Source of the DNA: Alphaproteobacteria bacterium
GTDB lineage: Bacteria > Pseudomonadota > Alphaproteobacteria > JACAEB01
Assembly: GCA_024236075.1 (NCBI GenBank)
Contig: JACKLE010000007.1
Location: 2,235 to 66,234, forward strand
Direction: 5' to 3'
DNA: 64,000 nt
This document shows positions 6,982-41,355 of this stretch, in pieces; positions within the stretch are counted from its first letter, which is position 1; every line of letters starts with the position of its first letter. The notes under the pieces were generated by a model. It did no database searches. It was not told where the DNA came from and saw only the letters and a list, made by a program, of their open reading frames with translations. The translations under genes were made by a program, and so were the position numbers.

Positions 6982-7059
6982 GGCCGAGCCGGCGGCAAGG
7001 CCGCCGCCGAATAAGGCCAAGCCGGCGGCAAGGCCGCCGCCGAATAGAGCGGAGCCGGC
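6955..7059. repeat. 33-bp tandem repeat, three copies plus a partial fourth, each containing a GC hairpin and an in-frame stop codon
   Basis: Unit GCCGGCGGCAAGGCCGCCGCCGAATARRGCSRA at 6955, 6988 and 7021. Copy 1 forms the last codons and stop of the 6472..6981 gene. Confidence 0.85.
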
Positions 7060-7082
7060 TCCGCACGCCGGGGGAAGGACGC

Positions 7083-7310
7083 TCAGGCGTCGCTTTGGGG
7101 CGCTTTGTCCTTCGCCCGCCCGATGTTGAGCGCGAGCATCTCGATCACGCGGTAGAGCCGGCCGACCCAGCGATCGTCCGCGGGCGTCGGCGTGAGCGCG
7201 GTGACGGCCGAGGCCGCCGTGACGACCGCGAAGGCGAGATTGAGCCAGGCCGGGGTCTGATCGAAGGGCGCAAGGACGAGGTTTGCGAAGGACTCCATCG
7301 CAGTCTCCAT
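7083..7310 (-). CDS. Small membrane protein, possible holin-like partner of the upstream SleB-like hydrolase
   Basis: 75 aa, METAMESFANLVLAPFDQTPAWLNLAFAVVTAASAVTAL..., with one hydrophobic helix and a charged tail. It lies 66 nt downstream of the hydrolase fragment on the same strand. Confidence 0.45.
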   Translation of the reverse strand: METAMESFANLVLAPFDQTPAWLNLAFAVVTAASAVTALTPTPADDRWVGRLYRVIEMLALNIGRAKDKAPQSDA

Positions 7311-7376
7311 GGTGAGGCCGCCGGCGCGAAGGCCGGCGGCGGGTTGAAGCGGAAAATTGGGGGACCGGCGCGCGCT

Positions 7377-7741
7377 CAGCCGCGCGGGTCGCCGCCCGCC
7401 AAAGCGAGGCTCCGGCCGCCCGGCATGCGATAGAAGCAGAGGCGCCCGAGGAGGGCCGTCGCCCGGCACGCATGGGCCCAGGCCGGCTCCTCGGCGTGCG
7501 GATGGTAGCGCGTCGCGCCGTGTGTCGGGTCGGCGAGGTCGCCCGACCAGACGCGGCAGGCGATGGCGACCGCGCGCGCGAAAGCCGGGTCGGCGAGATC
7601 GGGCCGCGGAAGGGCGCCCTCCCGCAGAATGCCCGCGCATGCCTCGCGCAGGCGCGCGATCGGGGGCTTGGCCGGCTCGACGGACAGGAGCTCGTCGAGC
7701 GCCCGATTGCGGATGGTCCAGGCGACGGCGACCTGGCAGAG
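7377..7741 (-). pseudogene. C-terminal fragment of a SleB-family cell-wall hydrolase, 5'-truncated by IS insertion
   Basis: My minus-strand translation reads LCQVAVAWTIRNRALDEL...ADPTHGATRYHPHAEEPAWAHACRATALLGRLCFYRMPG...*, ending at stop 7377..7379. The reading frame runs directly into the IS3 left end at 7742, with no start codon or N-terminal part. Confidence 0.7.
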
Positions 7742-9013
7742 TGCCCTACCCCCTCTGAAGTGGTCCTGGGACTATGATAGTCGGACCCTGAGAGTGGAGG
7801 CTTGTGATGCCGCGATGAAGGCAAACGGCAGAAGAAATATTGGGAAGCTGCGTGAGGTTGAGGTCCGGATCGGCCGGGGCATGACGGTTCAAGTGGTGAT
7901 CCGTGGGATCGGCGTGACCGAGCAGACCTACTACCGCTGGCGCAAAGAATATGGCGGCCTGAAGCTGGATCAGGCCAAACGGTTGAAGGACCTTGAGAGA
8001 GAGAGAGTAGAGAACGCCCGGCTGAAGAAAGCCGTCGCCGATCTGACACTCGACAAGATGATTTTGACTGAGGCCGCCTCGGGAAACTGGCAGGGCCCTC
8101 GCGCCGCCGGAAGTTCATCGACCATGCCTGCGAGAAGCTCGGTGTCTCCGGACGCCGGGCGTGCCAGGCGGTCGGCCAGCATCGCTCGACGCAGTGGCGA
8201 GCGCCGAGGAAGGCCGACGACGGAGACACGCCGACGGCGACGATCATACGCCTCGCGACGCGCTTCGGGCGTTACGGCTAACGACGCATCACGGCGTTGT
8301 TGAGAGCTGAAGGCTGGCGGGTGAACCACAAGCGTGTTGCGCGCATCTGGCGGCGCGAGAGCCTGAAAGTGCCGGCGCGACACAAGAAGCGCGGCCGTCT
8401 CTGGCTCAATGACGGCTCGTGCATTCGCTTGCGGCCAATGCATCGCAACCATGTCTGGGCCTATGACTTCGTCGAGGACAGAACGCGCGACGGGCGCAAG
8501 ATCCGCATGCTCACGGTGATCGACGAGTTCACGCGGGAATGCCTTGCGATCGAAGTGAACCGCCGCCTTAACAGCCAGGACGTTCTCGCAGTTCTGGCGC
8601 GGCTGTTCCTTGCGTGCGGCGTCCCTGGACATATTCGCAGCGACAATGGCTCCGAGTTCACAGCGAAGGCCGTCAGGAAGTGGCTCGCAATCATGAACGC
8701 GAAGACGCTCTACATCGAACCCGGAAGCCCATGGGAGAACGGCTACAATGAATCGTTCAACGGGAAATTGCGCGACGAATGTCTTAACACGGAGCTATTT
8801 TACTCGCTTCGCGAGGCGTAGATCCTCATCGAGGACTGGCGGCGTGAATATAATGCGATCCGACCCCATTCCTCGCTCGGATATCGTCCGCCGGCGCCGG
8901 AAACCTTTCAGCCGGCCAATCCGGCCTGCGCAATCTGAAAGCTCCAACCGGATCAGCCTTCCGCCGAAGCACGCTTTTCTGTTACATAGAACCCGGCTGC
9001 GCATACGGGGGCA
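7742..9013 (+). mobile_element. IS3-family insertion sequence, copy 1, transposase inactivated
   Basis: The left end is TGCCCTACCCCCTCTGAAGTGG and the right end is ...ACGGGGGCA (TG...CA termini). orfA contains GVTEQTYYRWRKEYGG...RLKDLERE...LKKAVADLTLDK. orfB contains [17 protein letters not shown]...[16 protein letters not shown]...[14 protein letters not shown]...IRSDNGSEF...[21 protein letters not shown]...RPHSSLGYRPPAPE. Confidence 0.85.
7815..8938 (+). pseudogene. IS3-family transposase orfAB with premature stops
   Basis: In the orfB frame, GRYG*RRITALL has a TAA near 8278 where GYRRI is expected, and SLREA*ILIEDWRR has a TAG at 8819..8821. Confidence 0.8.
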
Positions 9014-9121
9014 GGTCACTTCCGCCCACCCAACCCAGGGTAGACTTGCGTCGGTTCTTGTGTAGAGTTTCTATCCTGCCTAGACGGAAGCCGATGTTTC
9101 TCACCAAGGTAGCCGGAGATC

Positions 9122-9337
9122 ATGACAACAGAATCAGGCTCGAAAGGTAGCCGCAAAACGAACCTCGTCTACCTGCAACTGCTGGCGCAAGGTGAGGCTT
9201 TGAACCCGAGACACGCGGAAATGCCAAGTTCTGAGGAGGGTCTTGCGCTCGTGAGAGCCTTCTATGGAATTCGACATCGCGCGGATCGAGCGAAGGTCAT
9301 CGAGCTGGCACAAAAGCTTTTGAAGATTGCCAACTGA
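9122..9337 (+). CDS. Small hypothetical protein (71 aa), paralogue of the next ORF
   Basis: AT-richer ORF. It shares the motif EMPSxEEGLxLxRAFxxIRxxxDRxxVxELAxxLL with ORF 9350..9586. Confidence 0.4.
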   Translation: MTTESGSKGSRKTNLVYLQLLAQGEALNPRHAEMPSSEEGLALVRAFYGIRHRADRAKVIELAQKLLKIAN

Positions 9338-9349
9338 CCGCAGGAACAT

Positions 9350-9586
9350 TTGCGACGAAGGCCCTCATCTCGAAGCGAGGTCAATGTGACAGAGGACAAC
9401 GAGAAGGGGCCACGACGTGTTTGGCTTGCATCCGAATTCGACATTGACCCCGCGCCGAACATTGAAATGCCTTCGCCAGAGGAAGGATTGGAACTTCTAC
9501 GAGCGTTCTTCCGTATTAGGACAAAGAAAGATAGGGTTGCCGTCGTCGAACTGGCTCGGTCGCTTTTGGGTGAAAGCACACGTTGA
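9350..9586 (+). CDS. Small hypothetical protein (78 aa or shorter), paralogue of the previous ORF
   Basis: ...IEMPSPEEGLELLRAFFRIRTKKDRVAVVELARSLL aligns with the C-terminal half of ORF 9122..9337. The start codon is uncertain. Confidence 0.4.
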   Translation: MRRRPSSRSEVNVTEDNEKGPRRVWLASEFDIDPAPNIEMPSPEEGLELLRAFFRIRTKKDRVAVVELARSLLGESTR

Positions 9587-9671
9587 CACCAAGAGCGTCA
9601 CATTGGAGGGACTGGTAGTCCTCGACCCTGCTAAGCTGTTCTATCCTCTACAAATTTGCCCGATGCCCAGC

Positions 9672-9905
9672 TCAATTGAGTTTGAGTTTGCTGTCTCCAA
9701 TGTCAGTAACAAGATGAGCGCCATCGCTATCGTCTGTTAGTCTGAGTTCGCGAACGGCCTCTAGCCGCGCCATTTCGAGAAGGTAGGCCAATAGCCCGAG
9801 GTCACACTTTCCCGCTAGTGCTTTCAGAGCAGTGGTGAGTTCGGAAATGTGAACCAAAGCGTTGTGACGTTCGCATTCGTTTTGCCATTCATATTCTGAT
9901 GACAT
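9672..9905 (-). CDS. Small hypothetical protein (77 aa) downstream of the dioxygenase gene
   Basis: ORF on the same strand, 35 nt downstream of the phyH-like stop, with the same AT-richer composition. No recognisable motif. Confidence 0.35.
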   Translation of the reverse strand: MSSEYEWQNECERHNALVHISELTTALKALAGKCDLGLLAYLLEMARLEAVRELRLTDDSDGAHLVTDIGDSKLKLN

Positions 9906-11599: not shown

Positions 11600-12322
11600 T
11601 CAGATTCGGAGGAGGCGATGCCTCAACGCCTCGATCACCGCGGATATTCGTCGCTTTGCGCCGAGCTTTCGCTTCGCGTTCTCGACGTGCATATGGACAG
11701 TGGTCTCGCTAATCGTAAGAATTTCTCCGATCTCGGAATCTGATCGCCCTGTTGCAACCCAAGCTAAGATTTCGCGCTCGCGTCCGGTTAGGTTTGGTGC
11801 CTGCTCAATCAACGGATTTGCGAGGCTCAGGATTCGTGCATGTGTGTAGACACCGAGCAAACGGAGTATTTGCGAAACAGATGGGTCGTCATCGACGCGT
11901 GGGCCCGCAAATGCCGCTGCAGCGAAGTAGCCGTTAGGCCCTAGAATTGGAAATGCGTAGCCATCCGAGAGGCCAAACTCCTTCCCCTCGTTCAATATCT
12001 GCCATCCCTTGGTCCTTGGCCTTGTCTTTTCACGAATTTCTTTCCACGGGATACCACCCCCCCCTTCCATCAATGTCGTAACTACTGGATCAAAATATCT
12101 ATATTTATTTACGAAATACCTATTTCTCCATTCTAAATCATAGTTCAACATCCACCCGTGATCGCGTGATACTAGTCCTGCAAGGGGGCATACGACAAAA
12201 TATTCTATACCGAACGCATTTAAATTTTTTTCGATCAACGCCTTAAGTTCTGTTTCTGTCGTGGCACCTTCCATGTTCTCAAGAAGATCGAAGAATTTCT
12301 TTTTTGCGGTCGCGTCTGACAT
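11600..12322 (-). CDS. luxR: LuxR-family quorum-sensing transcriptional regulator (autoinducer-binding domain plus GerE HTH)
   Basis: 240 aa. The N-terminal domain carries the conserved W...Y...DP...W...G pattern (EWRNRYFVNKYRYFDPV, GIPW). The C-terminus reads LTGREREILAWVATGRSDSEIGEILTISETTVHMHVENAKRKLGA. Confidence 0.9.
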   Translation of the reverse strand: MSDATAKKKFFDLLENMEGATTETELKALIEKNLNAFGIEYFVVCPLAGLVSRDHGWMLNYDLEWRNRYFVNKYRYFDPVVTTLMEGGGGIPWKEIREKTRPRTKGWQILNEGKEFGLSDGYAFPILGPNGYFAAAAFAGPRVDDDPSVSQILRLLGVYTHARILSLANPLIEQAPNLTGREREILAWVATGRSDSEIGEILTISETTVHMHVENAKRKLGAKRRISAVIEALRHRLLRI

Positions 12323-12408
12323 TGTGTTCTCGATCTTGCCTGGCCCAGCTTGAACATCATCGTATTGATGCGCATCCTGCGTGCCTGGGCAACAGGGGTC
12401 GAATTGTA

Positions 12409-12440
12409 AGTCCGTATGATGAACGTTTACATGACGGACT
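12409..12440. promoter_or_regulatory. Imperfect 32-bp palindrome upstream of luxR, candidate operator
   Basis: AGTCCGTATGATGAACGTTTACATGACGGACT has half-sites AGTCCGT / ACGGACT and lies about 90 nt upstream of the luxR start. Confidence 0.3.
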
Positions 12441-12471
12441 GTCCTAGTTGATCGCCATTTCGGACTGGCTA

Positions 12472-13317
12472 GGTAGGGGACTCATTTGATCCACGCGACG
12501 ACGATGGCTGCGAGAGCGATTGCGGAGATGTAGTTTTGCGCGAGACGGTCATATCGCGTTGCGATGCGCCGCCAGTTTTTGAGCTTGCAGAACAGTCTCT
12601 CCACGACGTTGCGTCGTTTGTAGGCCGTTTCGTCGAGCGGATAGGGGACGGTGCGGGAGGCCGTTGAGGGAATGACGGCCTTGATCGTTCTGCTCTTGAG
12701 GTAGGAGCGAAAATGCTCCGCGTCATAGGCTCTATCGGCAAGCAGCCGCTTTGGGGCCAGGACCGCGTCGACGAGCGGCTTGGCCATGGTGATGTCGGCG
12801 ACATTGCCCGGCGTCAGGGCGAAGGCGACCGGCCTGCCGCAATCATCGGCCAGACAGTGGATTTTGCTTGTTCTGCCGCCGCGCGAGCGCCCAATCGCTT
12901 GCGCTTCCTCCCCCTTTTTCCGCCTGCGGCGGAGCGGTGGGCTTTGACATGGCTGCTATCGAGCGACAGCTCTTCGGGGACAGGTCCTGCGGCCGCCATT
13001 TTGGCGAACAGGCGTTGCCAGACCCCTCGGGCAGACCATCGATTGTAGCGGTTGTAGATCGTCGTATAGGGTCCGTACTCGGACGGACAATCCCGCCACC
13101 GGCATCCGGTCTTGAGAACATGCAGGATGCCGCTCATCACGCGCCGGTCATCCACACGCGGCTTGCCCGGCTTTCCGCGCGGCAGATGCGGGTCGATGAG
13201 AGCCCAGGCTTCGTCGGACAGCCAAAACAGATGCGACATCTCGGTCTCCTCGGGTAGTCGAACCCAAAAGGAAACTGATTTGCACAAAGAATCAATGCTT
13301 TGTATGAGTTCCCAACC
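12472..13317 (-). mobile_element. IS5-family (IS427-group-like) insertion sequence, apparently intact
   Basis: The terminal inverted repeats are GGTAGGGGACTCAT (left) and, as the reverse complement of the right end, GGTTGGGAACTCAT. The flanks are cTA and TAg, consistent with insertion into CTAG with TA duplication. It encodes a two-frame transposase. Confidence 0.85.
12482..13239 (-). CDS. IS5-family transposase (orfA-orfB joined by a putative programmed -1 frameshift)
   Basis: orfA reads MSHLFWLSDEAWALIDPHLPRGKPGKPRVDDRRVMSGILHVLKTGCRWRDCP...HVKAHRSAAGGK. At GGAAAAAGGGGG the other frame continues ...QAIGRSRGGRTSKIHCLADDCGRPVAFALTPGNVADITMAKPLV...LFCKLKNWRRIATRYDRL. Confidence 0.8.
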
Positions 13318-13576: not shown

Positions 13577-13870
13577 TCAAAGCTGAACATCGTGCGTCGT
13601 CAGGAATCGCGTCAACTCTCCGAGCGACACGATTGTCGGGCTCAAGTTCTGAAGTGACCCGAGCTGACCGTCGTCAGGCAAAGTACCCGTCAGCACACCG
13701 GCGACATGGCCAGTGTCCAGATCCACAATGGGTCCGCCGAAGAACGAACCGACATTCTCGCCACTGTCTATAGTGGGCCATTCCTTGATTGCCCATCGCC
13801 CTCGCTTTGCCTCCAGCCTTCCAGCGATCGTGACGATTGACGGAACGGGGCGGTTTTTCCTTGAGACGCC
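13577..13870 (-). pseudogene. Possible C-terminal fragment of a trypsin-like peptidase, 5'-truncated by IS3 copy 2
   Basis: My minus-strand translation reads ...IVTIAGRLEAKRGRWAIKEWPTIDSGENVGSFFGGPIVDLDTGHVAGVLTG...HDVQL*. This resembles a GxSGGP...G.V.G serine-protease C-terminus with a degenerate active-site box. The frame runs into the IS end at 13871. Confidence 0.3.
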
Positions 13871-15167
13871 TGCCCTACCCCTTCTGAAGTGGTCCTGGGA
13901 CTATGATAGTCGGACCCTGAGAGAGGAGGCTTGTGATGCCGCGATGAAGGCATACGGCAGAAGAAATTATTGGGAAGCTGCGTGAGGTTGAGGTCCGGAT
14001 CGGCCGGGGCATGACGGTTCAAGTGGTGATCCGTGGGATCGGCGTGACCGAGCAGACCTACTACCGCTGGCGCAAAGAATATGGCGGCCCGAAGCTGGAT
14101 CAGGTCAAGCGGCTGAAGGACCTTGAGAGAGAGAACAGTCGGCTGAAGCGGGCTGTTGCCGATCTCACGCTCTATGCTCTGATCCTGAAAGAAGCCGAAA
14201 AGGGAAACTTCTAAGCCCCGCGCGTCGCCGGCGAGCGATCCGGTATGTCCGCGAGACCATCTGCGTATCGGAGCGTCGGGCATGCCGGGTATTCGGTCAG
14301 CATTGCGCGACCCAACGTAAGATCGCCAGGACGCCTGACGATGAAGACGCCTTGGCGGGCGACATCATCGAGCTGGCGAAGACCTATGGACGCAATGGCT
14401 ACCGTCGGATCACGGCCCTACTCAAAGAGGCGGGCTGGGCCGTGAACCACAAGCGGGTCGAACGGATCTGGCGGCGTGAGGGGCTAAGAGCGCCTGCGAG
14501 ACAGCGCAAACGGGGTCGGCTCTGGCTCGACGATGGGTCTTGCCTCCGGCTGAGACCGGAATGCCGCAACCACGTTTGGACGTATGATCTTGTCGAGGAC
14601 CGCACCCAAGAGGGAAAGAAGATCCGCATGCTCACCGTCATCGATTCGTTCAGCCACACATGCCTGGCTATCACCGTCGAACGGTGCCTGAACAGCGGCA
14701 ACGTGCTCGACACCTTCGCGGATCTCTTCCTCGAGCATGGGCCGCCCAAGCACATTCGTCCGGACAACGGCCTAGAGTTCATTGCGACCGCCGTGCGGAA
14801 TGGCTCGCCCATATCGGCGTGAAGACGCTCTACATCGAACCGGGCTCACCTTGGGAGAACGGGTACAACGAGTCCTTCAACGGGAAGACTCCGCGATGAG
14901 CTGCTGAGCGGAGAGATCTTCTCGACGCTGAAAGAGGCCCAGACCCTGATCGAAGCATGGCGCCGTCACTACAACACCGTCAGGCCTCACAGCGCCTTGG
15001 GATACAGCCCGCCCGCGCCAGGGGCCTTCGCTCCCATGATCTTCCCAACAGCTCGACCCAAGGAGCTGGGTCTCCTGTCCGTCCTTGAGGTCGTAGAGGT
15101 CGAGCATCTCGCCGATCTCGGGATGGCCATGCCGAGCGTTCCCAACCAAGTTTCAACATGGGGGGCA
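13871..15167 (+). mobile_element. IS3-family insertion sequence, copy 2, transposase inactivated by several frameshifts
   Basis: The left end is TGCCCTACCCCTTCTGAAGTGG and the right end is ...CATGGGGGGCA. Transposase similarity is spread over at least 4 ORF fragments (13944.., 14011..14214, 14352..14822, 14660..14899, 14997..) in different frames. A 1-bp insertion (AAATTATTGGG versus AAATATTGGG in copy 1) truncates orfA after 13 codons. Confidence 0.85.
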
Positions 15168-17981: not shown

Positions 17982-18496
17982 GGCGCGTGCGGGCGGGGGC
18001 TGGATTCTGTTTGAAGCGTCCCACAATCGTGACGTCATCCCGCGCTTCAGGCGCGGGACCCATACTCCCGGCGTTTGTGGTCGTGCGTTCCGCGGTCGAG
18101 CCGCAGCACGACTGCCGCAGTCGGGCGATCAGAATTGATCGCGACACGCTCCAGGTCCGGTCATGACTTCTTGAACAGGTCCTGTTGTCTGCCTTGTGCT
18201 TCGCGCTTCGCCTTCTTGAACGGCGTGGTGTCGATCCAAGGCATAGGCGGGCGCTTGCCCTCGAATAGATCCTCAATAGTCAGAATTCGGATCCTTGAGA
18301 ACTGACCATACTCGGTTTCATAGTAACCAGCAGAAATCGCTTCCTTCCGCATCGGCGCCGTCGGCTCGGTCAACGTGAGGAAGATTCCAAGTTTTGCTTT
18401 CTCGCGCTCTACCGTTGCGATGAGGGGGACCTATATACGAGCTTGACCCAGCCGCCGTGACATCCTATATTCTGAGGGTGGCAATGGAGAGGCGCG

Positions 18497-19411
18497 ATGA
18501 CCAAGCAATTCGACAGCCTGATTGAGCTGATGGAAGCGCTCCCGGATGAGCAGTCCGCGATTGACCACTTCACCGCCATACGTTGGAAGGATGGGGCTTT
18601 CTGCCCCCATTGCGGCTCGACCAAGATCTATCACTTCAGCGACAAGCGTTCGCACAAGTGTGGGGCCTGCCGAGCGCGCTTCTCAATCAAAGTCGGAACG
18701 ATCTTCGAGGACACGAAGATCCCATTGCGCAAGTGGATGATGGCTATTTGGCTTATCACGTCGCACAAGAAAGGCATCGCGAGCACGCAACTGGCTAAGG
18801 ACATCAAGGTCACTCAGAAGACCGCATGGTTTATGCTCCACCGCCTTCGCCATGCCGCGATGACGAAATCCTTCAGCGCGCCTCTCAAGGGTACCGTCGA
18901 AGCTGACGAGACCTATGTTGGCGGTAAGGCCAAGAACAAGCACGCATCCAAGCGTGAGAAGGGTACGCAAGGTGGAAGGGGCAAGGTGATTGTCTTTGGG
19001 ATGCTGGAGCGCGAGGGCCAGCTTCGCACGCTGCATATCAGCAATCTAAAGGCGCACAACGTACACGGCATTATCTCCGACCATGTCGAGCCCGGCGCCA
19101 ACATCATGACAGACGAACATGTTTCGTTTGTGGGGCTTCAAGGGCGCTATCACCATCACACCGTCAACCACTCAGCCGGCGAGTACGTGCGCCATTTCTT
19201 CGCCCACACGAACGGAATTGAGAGCGTCTGGGCGCTTCTGAAGCGTCAAATTATTGGGATACATCATTGGGTTAGCCAAAAGCACCTTTCACGCTATCTC
19301 GGAGAGATGGCATGGCGCTACAATCGTCGGAACTTGGAGGAAGGCGACCGTTTGAACGCCTTGCTTTCGTCAACAGATGGGCGGCTCACCTATCGAGCCT
19401 TGGTTGCATGA
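18497..19411 (+). CDS. IS1595-family transposase (N-terminal zinc ribbon plus DDE domain)
   Basis: 304 aa, with FTAIRWKDGAFCPHCGSTKIYHFSDKRSHKCGACRARFSIKVGTIFEDTKIPLRKWMMAIWLITSHKKGIASTQLAKDIKVTQKTAWFMLHRLR...EADETYVGG... Confidence 0.9.
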   Translation: MTKQFDSLIELMEALPDEQSAIDHFTAIRWKDGAFCPHCGSTKIYHFSDKRSHKCGACRARFSIKVGTIFEDTKIPLRKWMMAIWLITSHKKGIASTQLAKDIKVTQKTAWFMLHRLRHAAMTKSFSAPLKGTVEADETYVGGKAKNKHASKREKGTQGGRGKVIVFGMLEREGQLRTLHISNLKAHNVHGIISDHVEPGANIMTDEHVSFVGLQGRYHHHTVNHSAGEYVRHFFAHTNGIESVWALLKRQIIGIHHWVSQKHLSRYLGEMAWRYNRRNLEEGDRLNALLSSTDGRLTYRALVA

Positions 19412-19659
19412 CAATGCGAAAGAAGCAGTCACAGAAAAAGCAGACAAAAAAGGAGTTGGTCGGGATGCCTTTTGATGAGGCATTGGAACGCTTTATCCTA
19501 ACCGACCCGGATGAATTGTCCGAGGCGCTGCAATCCTATGACGCCTTGAAAGAGGAACATGATCGCTTGTCTGACGATGTTGATGCCGATCAGGACCGAG
19601 TTATTCGCCGAATGAGGGGGAAGGCAGCCGATGGCAAAGTCAAAAAAAGAACAGACTGA
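19408..19659 (+). CDS. Passenger ORF 1: small, highly charged hypothetical protein (83 aa)
   Basis: Its ATG overlaps the transposase stop (ATGA). The sequence MTMRKKQSQKKQTKKELVGMPFDEALERFILTDPDELSEALQSYDALKEEHDRLSDDVDADQDRV... has a basic N-terminus and an acidic helical middle. Confidence 0.5.
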   Translation: MTMRKKQSQKKQTKKELVGMPFDEALERFILTDPDELSEALQSYDALKEEHDRLSDDVDADQDRVIRRMRGKAADGKVKKRTD

Positions 19660-20485
19660 ACAATCGGTTTTGGATTTCCTTTATGTCGATGCAGTTCGTG
19701 TACGATCCTTTATTTCGCAGCTTGGTGAGATAGGTGTTCTTGACGGGGTGACAGAAACGGACGCATTGGACGCATCCAAGGCAACCACCTTTTCAGGGTC
19801 AATTGGTGGCGAACCTATCATTGGTTCGGGCGTCGAGAGGACAAGCGAGCGAGCCACATCAGAATCACAATCGCGAACCTACGATGTGCAGCACCGGCTT
19901 CCGGTTAGTCTCCTCAATTTGCTAGAAACGCAAAACTTAATTCAACGAAAAATTGTCGATGCCGCGATAGGTGACTTAGTTGTCTGCTCTGGAACATTAT
20001 CGATAATCGATACTTCATTCCATCGTGAGCTTTATTCGTCAGCTAAGATGAAGGAACTTTCTGTTCGGCGATCAGAGGAAAGACTCAAAAAAGAGGGGCA
20101 GACGTATGACCTGGAAAGTCTGCACATCGAACTTGATATGATCCGCATGATCCCGCCCTTTGTGCAGGCCCTAGTAGATACTGGCAATGTTGCCGTATGG
20201 CTTACCTTGCGACCGGAGAGCCTCACAACGCCTCCTCACGAGATCAACATGAAACACGGGGTTGTGCTTCAAGGTAGTTGGACATTGCTTGGTATCAAAG
20301 ACTCTACTCCTTCTCTTGCGCCCGAAATTTTGCAGGATGCAACTCGACTCAAGGGCCGATTTGAAAACCAATCAATGATCGCTGAGATGATCGATGTGCT
20401 CACTGCATTGCGCGGGTATGTGGGACGACCGCCATCCTCATATGGGGTGACACCGCTTCTAATTTACAGAGAAGCTAACACCTAG
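19631..20485 (+). CDS. Passenger ORF 2: hypothetical protein (284 aa), no family recognised
   Basis: It overlaps ORF 1 by 29 nt and its stop (20483..20485) lies in the partial extension of the right inverted repeat (...TGACC), 8 nt before the core repeat at 20494. The N-terminus is MAKSKKEQTEQSVLDFLYVDAVRVRSFISQLGEIGVLDG... AT-richer codon usage is continuous with the transposase. Confidence 0.65.
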   Translation: MAKSKKEQTEQSVLDFLYVDAVRVRSFISQLGEIGVLDGVTETDALDASKATTFSGSIGGEPIIGSGVERTSERATSESQSRTYDVQHRLPVSLLNLLETQNLIQRKIVDAAIGDLVVCSGTLSIIDTSFHRELYSSAKMKELSVRRSEERLKKEGQTYDLESLHIELDMIRMIPPFVQALVDTGNVAVWLTLRPESLTTPPHEINMKHGVVLQGSWTLLGIKDSTPSLAPEILQDATRLKGRFENQSMIAEMIDVLTALRGYVGRPPSSYGVTPLLIYREANT

Positions 20486-20837
20486 GTCACACACGTATAT
20501 AGGCCCCCGATGAGGTCACGGATCATCCCTACTCCAACGTTCTCGCCGCCCTTCACGGATACCACTGCCTTCTCCGTCACCTTCCCGTCAGGCTTGAAAA
20601 AGCACGTTGTAGGAGGCGTTCGAGTTGAAGGGCGGGTCGAGATAGACGAGGTCGACGGATTCGTCGGCAATGTGCCCACGGAGAATGTCGAGATTGTCGC
20701 CATAGTATAGCTTGTTCGTCATCCGCCCCGCCCTGCCCGATCCGCCGTCGCGACTTGGTGGCTCAAGATTCCGCTTGCGCGGAAATTTCTATTGGCGCAT
20801 TGTGTTCTTGTTTTGTTCGATTCGCAAGGAGGCCTCG

Positions 20838-40829: not shown

Positions 40830-40934
40830 GGCCCGCCGATGGCCTCCAAACGCCGAAGGGGCGCGATGATCGCCGATTCTCGCCGGCGCGCCCGCCTTCA
40901 GCCTTTCGTTGAGGCGGCGCGCTTCCTATATTGC

Positions 40935-41290
40935 TCCTGTCGGCTCGCGCCGACTATGGCGATAAACGGACGCGTAATAAGCGGTTCGGACCCGGGGGCA
41001 GTACCCGGCGCCTCCACCATATCCTCCCTCGCGGCCGTCGGGCCGGGGGGACGGCCTCGAGGCTCGAGGCCAGGCCATGGGGGCGAACCAGGATCGACGG
41101 ACGTGTAAAGGTGCTCTTTTCGCCCGGGATGGTACCGCCGTTAACGGACCGCCAGAATAGTTGCCAATGACAACTATGCTGAGGTGCGTCTCGCCGCCTA
41201 AGGCGGTCGGACAAACCGACTTGAAGCCCTAGGCCTTCAGCGGGTCTAGGCGGGGTCCGGAGGGCACCTGGCAACAGAAGCCCTCCACCT
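40935..41290 (+). ncRNA. ssrA: tmRNA (ssrA), circularly permuted two-piece alphaproteobacterial type; boundaries approximate
   Basis: The tag reading frame GCC AAT GAC AAC TAT GCT GAG GTG CGT CTC GCC GCC TAA (41163..41201) encodes ANDNYAEVRLAA. The acceptor 3' strand CGCCTCCACCA ends at 41019, upstream of the 5' strand GGGGGCGAACCAGGATCGACGG (from 41079). These pair with a G:U at position 3. Confidence 0.8.
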
Positions 41291-41355
41291 TCCCTCGCCT
41301 TCCGCCATGTCTCCGCCACGAACGGGCCCTCGCCGTGCCATTTTGAAACGGTGGC

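Follow-up and report, generated by a model that had tools for sequence, protein, structure and literature searches.

A two-gene module with a distant DUF6414 relative on an IS1595-family insertion sequence: a candidate mobile defence system

The locus described here raises the question of what two overlapping genes are doing on an insertion sequence (IS) that carries them immediately downstream of its transposase gene. The locus lies in a stretch of 64,000 nt, referred to below as the window, from an alphaproteobacterium (assembly GCA_024236075.1, contig JACKLE010000007.1, positions 2,235 to 66,234 of the forward strand). An earlier note, made from the sequence of the window, described the two open reading frames (ORFs), of 83 and 284 amino acids, as overlapping and translationally coupled to the transposase gene, and this description, including the coordinates, has been confirmed. 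The note further proposed that the pair, here called ORF1 and ORF2, is passenger cargo of a defence or addiction type. The three genes in question are the following.

18497 to 19411, plus strand: transposase, 304 aa, an IS1595-family DDE enzyme with an N-terminal zinc ribbon (Pfam and NCBIfam matches)
19408 to 19659, plus strand: ORF1, 83 aa, helical and highly charged small partner (ORF calls, homologous small ORFs in 76 loci)
19631 to 20485, plus strand: ORF2, 284 aa, alpha/beta protein of the PHROG 9699 family and distant DUF6414 relative (profile matches)

We show here that ORF1 and ORF2 belong together as a self-contained module of two genes, which also exists without a transposase. In the window, the ATG of ORF1 and the TGA of the transposase gene overlap as ATGA (19408 to 19411), and ORF1 overlaps by 29 nt with ORF2, which is read in the +1 frame. 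Using contig look-ups, BLAST searches of phages and plasmids, and scans of collections of genomes, viral sequences and metagenomes, we assembled 91 loci carrying related genes. At 76 of these (69 unique sequences) the large gene is preceded by a small ORF in a constant arrangement: the large gene is read in the +1 frame, and the stop codon of the small gene overlaps the Asp codon of a conserved DFLY motif in the large protein. Overlaps of 29 to 77 nt were seen. Within the overlap, conservation is higher in the small frame than in the large one (mean column entropy of 2.33 bits versus 3.02 bits), and for this reason the small ORF is a real protein-coding gene that is under selection at the protein level. 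Among 112 neighbouring ORFs, a Pfam census revealed no recurrent third partner. The earlier note had made its proposal depend on the two genes occurring together outside this element, and they do so at dozens of loci: a transposase is absent nearby at 36 of the 49 genome loci, at all 21 viral loci and in all cultured phages. At one locus (L011, 237 to 1004, plus strand) the place of the transposase is occupied by an ORF of 255 aa, which shares 4 nt with the beginning of the small gene and has no match in Pfam or PADLOC; this ORF may be a third partner particular to its lineage, or else a decayed gene.

In the window, the pair is part of a complete IS1595-family insertion sequence of 2082 bp (18426 to 20507), in which the three overlapping genes are all encoded on the plus strand. 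The transposase matches the Pfam family DDE_Tnp_IS1595 (PF12762) across the full profile with an E-value of 1.9e-44 and the NCBIfam model IS1595 (NF033547) with an E-value of 5.5e-62 and 209 bits (cut-off 75), and its residues 16 to 60 match Zn_ribbon_IS1595 (PF12760) with an E-value of 2e-11 and 44 bits (cut-off 25.4). Every IS1595 family feature that we tested is present, namely the DDE transposase, the zinc ribbon, the terminal inverted repeats and the 8 bp target duplication. The remaining parts of the element and its flanks are given below.

18418 to 18425, no strand: left target-site duplication, octamer CGATGAGG, the same 8 bp as at 20508 to 20515
18426 to 18448, plus strand: left terminal inverted repeat, GGGACCTATATACGAGCTTGACC (pattern search and repeat finder)
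18443 to 18471, plus strand: promoter-like site TTGACC-17-TATATT, matching the consensus at 10 of 12 positions, the best in the region
20485 to 20507, minus strand: right terminal inverted repeat, read on this strand as GGGGCCTATATACGTGTGTGACC
20508 to 20515, no strand: right target-site duplication, CGATGAGG
18161 to 18425, minus strand: C-terminal part of an interrupted methyltransferase / restriction-endonuclease-like gene (frame restoration, weak Pfam matches)
20516 to 20722, minus strand: upstream part of the same remnant, a methyltransferase N-terminus with a DPPF motif (frame restoration, Pfam)

The inverted repeats are imperfect, the repeat finder reporting a pair of 27 nt with 81% complementarity; a degenerate pattern describing the ends matched exactly twice in the 64 kb window, and none of 100 shuffled sequences gave any match. 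The stop codon of ORF2 runs into the right repeat by its final base, and the target duplication, a perfect 8 bp, lies directly outside both repeats. Together with the GC content of the element, 51.9% as compared with 68.4% in the rest of the window, the perfect duplication indicates that the intact element was acquired recently. The promoter-like site is located 25 nt upstream of the transposase ATG with its −35 hexamer inside the left repeat, and no comparable site is found upstream of ORF1. A single operon is the simplest reading of this arrangement, since the best promoter-like site has its −35 hexamer within the repeat, and TTGACC-17-TATATT is probably the promoter of all three genes.

When the element and one copy of the duplication are excised, a continuous minus-strand frame is restored (...GMIRDLI|ATVEREK..., with the bar marking the junction). 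The target gene had already decayed: a methyltransferase N-terminus of 44 aa with the DPPF motif, which is also called as a gene on the Logan contig L002, ends in a stop codon, and the C-terminal fragment, with weak Pfam matches to Mrr_cat and NA-iREase1 that are both below threshold, continues out of frame. To judge from the motif and these matches, the flanks are what is left of a DNA methyltransferase gene whose product had a restriction-endonuclease-like C-terminus. The proposal that the pair rides on an IS which landed in a restriction-modification remnant is thus borne out by the repeats, the duplication and the restored frame of the decayed methyltransferase gene.

The transposase gene, the small gene and the large gene constitute a conserved three-gene IS lineage, which goes beyond mere passenger cargo. 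The label of passenger is therefore correct in so far as these are extra genes on an IS, but it understates an arrangement that is conserved in at least 14 diverged elements. Among these, 11 have a full-length transposase match. The transposases of the 14 or more elements are 50 to 82% identical, and the window transposase is 50 to 74% identical to those of its sister elements. In the species-level genome scan, an IS1595 transposase (50 to 73% identical) was found directly upstream of the pair at 13 of the 49 loci, three of these being degraded, and L088 is an additional transposase-bearing locus besides these 13. A complete sister element of 1992 bp (L001) has the identical three-gene layout and the target duplication CTGTTTAA; its transposase is 74% identical to that of the window, and its small and large proteins are 31 to 37% identical to ORF1 and ORF2, depending on the alignment. 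Inverted repeats and 8 bp duplications enclose all three genes in this element and at the loci L022, L027, L035 and L046, and the sequence of the terminal inverted repeat is conserved in L001, L022, L035 and L046. In all intact sister elements the right repeat is located at most about 30 nt past the stop codon of the large gene and directly abuts it in most of them (at least 10 elements), and in the comparison of sister loci the right repeat was not present at module copies off the IS.

The cargo and the transposase of this lineage do not diverge in step. Among nine elements the mean identity is 62% for the transposases, 44% for the small proteins and 39% for the large proteins; in all 36 pairs the large protein has diverged further than the transposase, and the two divergences are uncorrelated. 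In a neighbour-joining tree, which resolves the deep branches poorly, copies borne on an IS are scattered and interspersed with the others. The lack of correlation and the scattering suggest that the cargo has either evolved fast, to the point of saturation, or been exchanged as cassettes between elements. That the IS captured its cargo only once was considered and, in view of this scattering, set aside, but only tentatively given the poor resolution of the tree at depth. Two observations on transposases may be added. At L022, in Nitratireductor alexandrii, a second IS1595-type transposase gene (8770 to 9696, minus strand), whose product is 38% identical to the window transposase, is located about 2 kb downstream of the IS-borne module. 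Residues 98 to 140 of the window transposase give a weak PADLOC match to the candidate system HEC-08 (E-value 1.4e-4, 19 bits), which probably reflects a helix-turn-helix or a transposase-like segment common to both.

Along ORF1 the charge changes twice: the N-terminus is basic with a pI of 10.7, the centre is acidic with a pI of 4.05 and the tail is basic again with a pI of 11.6. An AlphaFold model from the single sequence (pLDDT 77) consists of a short helix from residue 22 to 32 and a long helix from 34 to 82. This agrees with the earlier description of a basic N-terminus followed by an acidic helical centre. The label of an antitoxin, anti-sigma or adaptor protein that had been read from it is a compositional guess to which no family match corresponds. 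ORF1 has no match in Pfam, NCBIfam, PADLOC, PHROGs or the PDB, a word-indexed protein search returned the query alone, and none of 48 small partners matches a family, so that no recognizable DNA-binding domain was found among them. The small proteins of the lineage are about 70 to 83 aa long, and those of the family at large share a basic N-terminus, a FDEALARFIQTDPKEL-like motif that is clearest in the IS-borne copies, a charged helix and a basic tail with the consensus RGARRxxKRFRL, which is encoded within the start of the large gene. It is through the N-terminal motif that ORF1 of the window belongs to this family.

For ORF2, the statement in the earlier note that no motif could be assigned has to be corrected. 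ORF2 matches Pfam DUF6414 (PF19952) above the gathering score (33.4 bits, cut-off 25, E-value 5e-8; residues 15 to 133, profile positions 3 to 128 of 283), the same family is matched by 44 of 82 relatives, and ORF2 matches phrog_9699 over its full length (E-value 2.1e-51; residues 5 to 282, profile positions 3 to 268 of 270). A purine run, GAGGGGGAAGG, just upstream of its ATG provides a purine-rich ribosome-binding site. A word-indexed search with ORF2 returned its own protein and one relative with 32% identity; an exhaustive profile search gave 892 clusters (at 50% identity) with E-values of at most 1e-3, 276 of them with E-values of at most 1e-30, and among the matches listed nearly all are 260 to 330 aa long and aligned over nearly their full length. 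The AlphaFold model, based on an alignment of 17 sequences and of moderate confidence (pLDDT 75, pTM 0.70), has an alpha/beta core, and residues 38 to 83 are modelled with low confidence as a segment rich in Gly, Ser and Thr. As the earlier note had said, no transmembrane helix is predicted, and the sole hydrophobic peak is modelled as a buried beta-strand. The possibility that the loop formed by residues 38 to 83 is a membrane-inserting hairpin was rejected, as the segment is mostly polar across the family. We found no literature on PF19952, IPR045633 or phrog_9699.

What, then, might the module do? We hold with moderate confidence that the pair is an anti-phage or abortive-infection/exclusion defence module that resides on mobile elements. 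This reading is favoured because the module is self-contained and fast-evolving, is found in slots from which lysogens express genes, has known defence genes as neighbours and is distantly tied to a validated defence protein. In the Moraxella phages Mcat13 and Mcat17 and in the Acinetobacter phage qsb1 the pair is a moron within the tail module, at 12293 to 13274 in Mcat13, and in Bordetella avium phages it is located about 780 nt downstream of the integrase gene. In a Klebsiella lambdoid prophage the pair lies directly downstream of an S24 cI-like repressor gene and in the same orientation, that is, in the rexAB slot, and the contig encoding protein P0159 shows a similar arrangement with a cI-like helix-turn-helix gene upstream of the pair. 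It is also carried by 21 IMG/VR proviruses, in several of which it lies within about 1 to 2 kb of the contig end. On an island of Agrobacterium rhizogenes (JAAMDO010000005) the pair is next to AbiTii, a SIR2-nSTAND (SIR2-STAND) gene and a PIN toxin-antitoxin pair; at another locus it is next to a split GmrSD gene, which PADLOC labels HEC-05, and at a third it is beside the gene for a protein of 4072 aa with LPD3, ParB and SNF2 domains, of a type associated with conjugative elements. The hosts of the family are mainly Proteobacteria. At the Klebsiella pneumoniae locus CP125156 (L064, 7004 to 7839) the large gene is annotated as two coding sequences (7004 to 7516 and 7498 to 7839) and is frameshifted or mis-sequenced; the record itself, in which the pair spans 1194482 to 1195459, is 5.37 Mb long and filed as a plasmid but is clearly a chromosome.

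The tie to a validated defence protein runs through the Pfam match. DUF6414 is the domain of DolA, which together with DolB makes up the two-gene anti-phage system Dodola (Millman et al., 2022, bioRxiv 10.1101/2022.05.11.491447). We took the sequences of DolA and DolB from the supplement of that study, and the validated DolA from Bacillus cereus FM1 fills DUF6414 end to end (E-value 1.2e-21). The link between the ORF2 family and DolA goes via the Pfam model and one intermediate protein, P0164, only, and for this reason we regard ORF2 as a distant member of the DUF6414 superfamily, with a different partner.

The promoter in the left repeat would drive one operon comprising the transposase gene, ORF1 and ORF2. 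If the pair is indeed a defence module, it would probably work along the lines of a toxin-antitoxin system, bringing about phage exclusion or abortive infection. The part of the effector would fall to the large protein, a distant member of the DUF6414/DolA superfamily for which no relative in fold is known, and that of a co-translated regulator or neutralizer to the small helical protein. Both sides would profit from the association: the IS from cargo that is selectable or addictive, and the cargo from transposition, by which it could spread. Taken further, the pair may represent an unrecognized and widespread anti-phage system with a new fold and a dual-coding junction, fixed in an IS1595 lineage as an autonomous 'defence transposon' of about 2 kb whose cargo is exchanged or diversified independently of the transposase. 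We offer this fuller proposal tentatively and lean somewhat against it as a whole.

Several results weigh against a defence function, or against the window copy as a good representative of it. The contexts described above speak for the signature of defence or addiction cargo that the earlier note had recognized, as does the distant DUF6414 match; PADLOC does not. Among its 5027 models, which presumably include one for Dodola or DolA, none matched ORF1, ORF2 or 82 relatives, apart from one spurious match, and the DUF6414 protein P0164 had no relevant match either. Neither protein matches a toxin or antitoxin family in Pfam, NCBIfam or PADLOC. The DUF6414 match covers only the N-terminal half of ORF2, and a direct comparison of the family profile with the validated DolA shows no similarity (hhalign probability 0.2%, hmmsearch score −2 bits). 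Foldseek identified no structural relative of ORF2, the best E-values being 0.13 in the PDB and 0.11 in BFVD with TM-scores of about 0.2, and some of these matches are weakly OB-fold-like, which we do not trust; a sequence-profile search of the PDB likewise gave nothing. ORF2 has no recognizable catalytic or pore motif and nothing that indicates toxicity, and many of the neighbours of the module are housekeeping genes. Finally, the pair in the window is atypical: the stop codon of ORF1 is located 14 nt upstream of the usual position, so that the RFRL ending is missing, and ORF2 deviates at 3 of about 24 near-invariant columns of its family. The copy in the window could be a decaying one.

The alternative that survives best is a pure addiction module, that is, a toxin-antitoxin system which stabilizes the IS, prophage or island because cells that have lost the element are killed or arrested, and which has no anti-phage role. 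A small upstream gene overlapping a larger downstream gene is the layout typical of type II systems, the pair is found almost exclusively on mobile elements and it evolves fast relative to the transposase. However, apart from the missing toxin and antitoxin matches and the small protein's lack of a recognizable DNA-binding domain, post-segregational killing would be of doubtful value to a chromosomal IS. We consider this alternative unlikely, and it should be added that many toxin-antitoxin systems also defend, which makes the two readings hard to separate.

It has also to be considered that the pair serves the phage or element in another way, for example in anti-defence, lysogeny or host takeover, and was merely picked up by the IS lineage. 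This would be consistent with the identity of the family as PHROG 9699 and with its presence in the cultured Moraxella, Bordetella and Acinetobacter phages and in the IMG/VR proviruses. The positions that it takes up there, however, fit conversion or exclusion genes expressed in the lysogen and not early lytic anti-defence genes, and copies also exist in chromosomal defence islands and on the IS, where anti-defence would not benefit the host. We regard such a role as distinctly improbable.

A third possibility, that the pair is a transposition accessory of the IS1595 lineage, such as a regulator or a factor for target immunity or target selection, would account for the strict three-gene layout, the ATGA coupling and the right repeat abutting the large-gene stop codon. 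It is largely refuted and in our view very improbable: most members of the family have no transposase nearby, the divergence of the module is uncorrelated with that of the transposase and neither protein matches a DNA-binding or ATPase domain. A match of ORF2 to a housekeeping or transposition-accessory profile, which the earlier note had named among the results that would speak against its proposal, was not found.

That ORF1 and ORF2 are one gene, fused by frameshifting or transcriptional slippage at the run of seven A residues in their overlap, can hardly be true, as ORF2 is in the +1 frame at nearly all loci, at odds with a standard −1 frameshift, the C-terminal motif and the stop position of the small ORF are themselves conserved, homopolymers of at least 6 nt occur in only 13 of 77 unique related overlaps, and ORF2 has its own ATG and ribosome-binding site. 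The A7 run itself (19643 to 19649), which might permit slippage joining both frames, is probably incidental.

Should the pair prove to be a defence or addiction module, an uncharacterized family of about 900 clusters (at 50% identity) that is absent from PADLOC v2 would be added to the anti-phage repertoire. It would also mean that a plain IS of 2 kb is able to keep defence-type cargo as a stable and conserved part; to our knowledge, most descriptions of such cargo have so far concerned prophages, satellites and large transposons of the Tn7-like kind. The fixed junction, with the small-gene stop codon inside the DFLY motif, provides a simple sequence signature for finding further copies, and the cultured phages and the Klebsiella prophage are ready experimental material.

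Two further features of the window were noted. A two-piece (permuted) alphaproteobacterial tmRNA gene, an ordinary housekeeping gene, is located at 40900 to 41292 on the plus strand (Rfam alpha_tmRNA, 267 bits; ARAGORN tag ANDNYAEVRLAA) and confirms that the host is an alphaproteobacterium. About 4 kb from the IS1595 element, at approximately 13770 to 15000 on the plus strand, there are fragments which by eye resemble a decayed IS3-family element, with an OrfA-like ORF of 67 aa (14011 to 14214) and split integrase-core-like ORFs (14352 to 14822 and 14660 to 14899).

How does the module compare with systems that are already known? With type II toxin-antitoxin systems it shares a small upstream gene that overlaps a larger one, a highly charged small protein and a location on mobile elements. 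However, overlaps in type II systems usually measure 1 to 4 nt and are therefore shorter than those of 29 to 77 nt seen here, and classical type II toxins are far smaller than proteins of the ORF2 type. No DNA-binding fold (helix-turn-helix, ribbon-helix-helix, AbrB or similar) is seen in the small protein, whose AlphaFold model is dominated by one long helix. With RexA and RexB of lambda the module has in common that two genes directly follow a cI-like S24 repressor gene in the Klebsiella lambdoid prophage. RexB is a membrane channel, whereas neither protein of the module has a membrane helix, and the gene order is reversed, with the small gene first; no similarity to the Rex proteins was seen, and no PADLOC model matched. 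ORF2 and its prophage relatives match PHROG 9699, but this is a phage family without a function, which is silent on the small partner and the IS-borne form.

Among insertion sequences, the closest parallel is provided by IS1595-family elements with passenger genes, which were reportedly described by Siguier, Gagnevin and Chandler in 2009 as 'transporter IS'. The window element resembles these in its DDE_Tnp_IS1595 transposase with a zinc ribbon, its short inverted repeats, its 8 bp duplication and the extra genes inside. It differs in that the same two-gene cargo is present in at least 14 diverged elements and also occurs independently in phages and islands, and we found no description of ORF1/ORF2-type cargo in the literature on IS1595 passenger genes.

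Among defence systems, the comparison to be made is with Dodola. DolA and ORF2 are both about 260 to 290 aa long, each system consists of two genes and resides on mobile or variable DNA, and, reading by eye, a conserved N-terminal strand motif followed by a segment rich in Gly, Ser and Thr is seen in DolA as well as in ORF2. However, the module is without DolB, a ClpB-like AAA+ ATPase of 362 to 391 aa, and has instead an upstream overlapping helical partner of about 70 aa; furthermore, the hosts of the module are mainly Proteobacteria and not Firmicutes. No ClpB-like AAA+ partner is recurrent among the 112 neighbouring ORFs, two of which match AAA_24. At one locus (L007, 6979 to 9582, minus strand) a family member is convergent to a ClpB gene, the product of which is most likely a housekeeping chaperone, since it is full-length (867 aa) with Clp_N and two AAA modules; this pairing is repeated at no other locus. 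With no DolB, no PADLOC match and no direct profile similarity to DolA, the ORF1/ORF2 family is, as far as such comparisons reach, not Dodola. Both cargo-bearing IS1595 elements and DUF6414 defence proteins are kinds already known, and the finding is not categorically new. What makes the two-gene module worth testing by experiment is that it has a dual-coding junction, is missing from defence databases, lacks any relative in fold and resides stably on an IS of 2 kb, and if the pair does act in defence or addiction, it would provide a second, ATPase-free architecture for the poorly understood DUF6414/Dodola superfamily.

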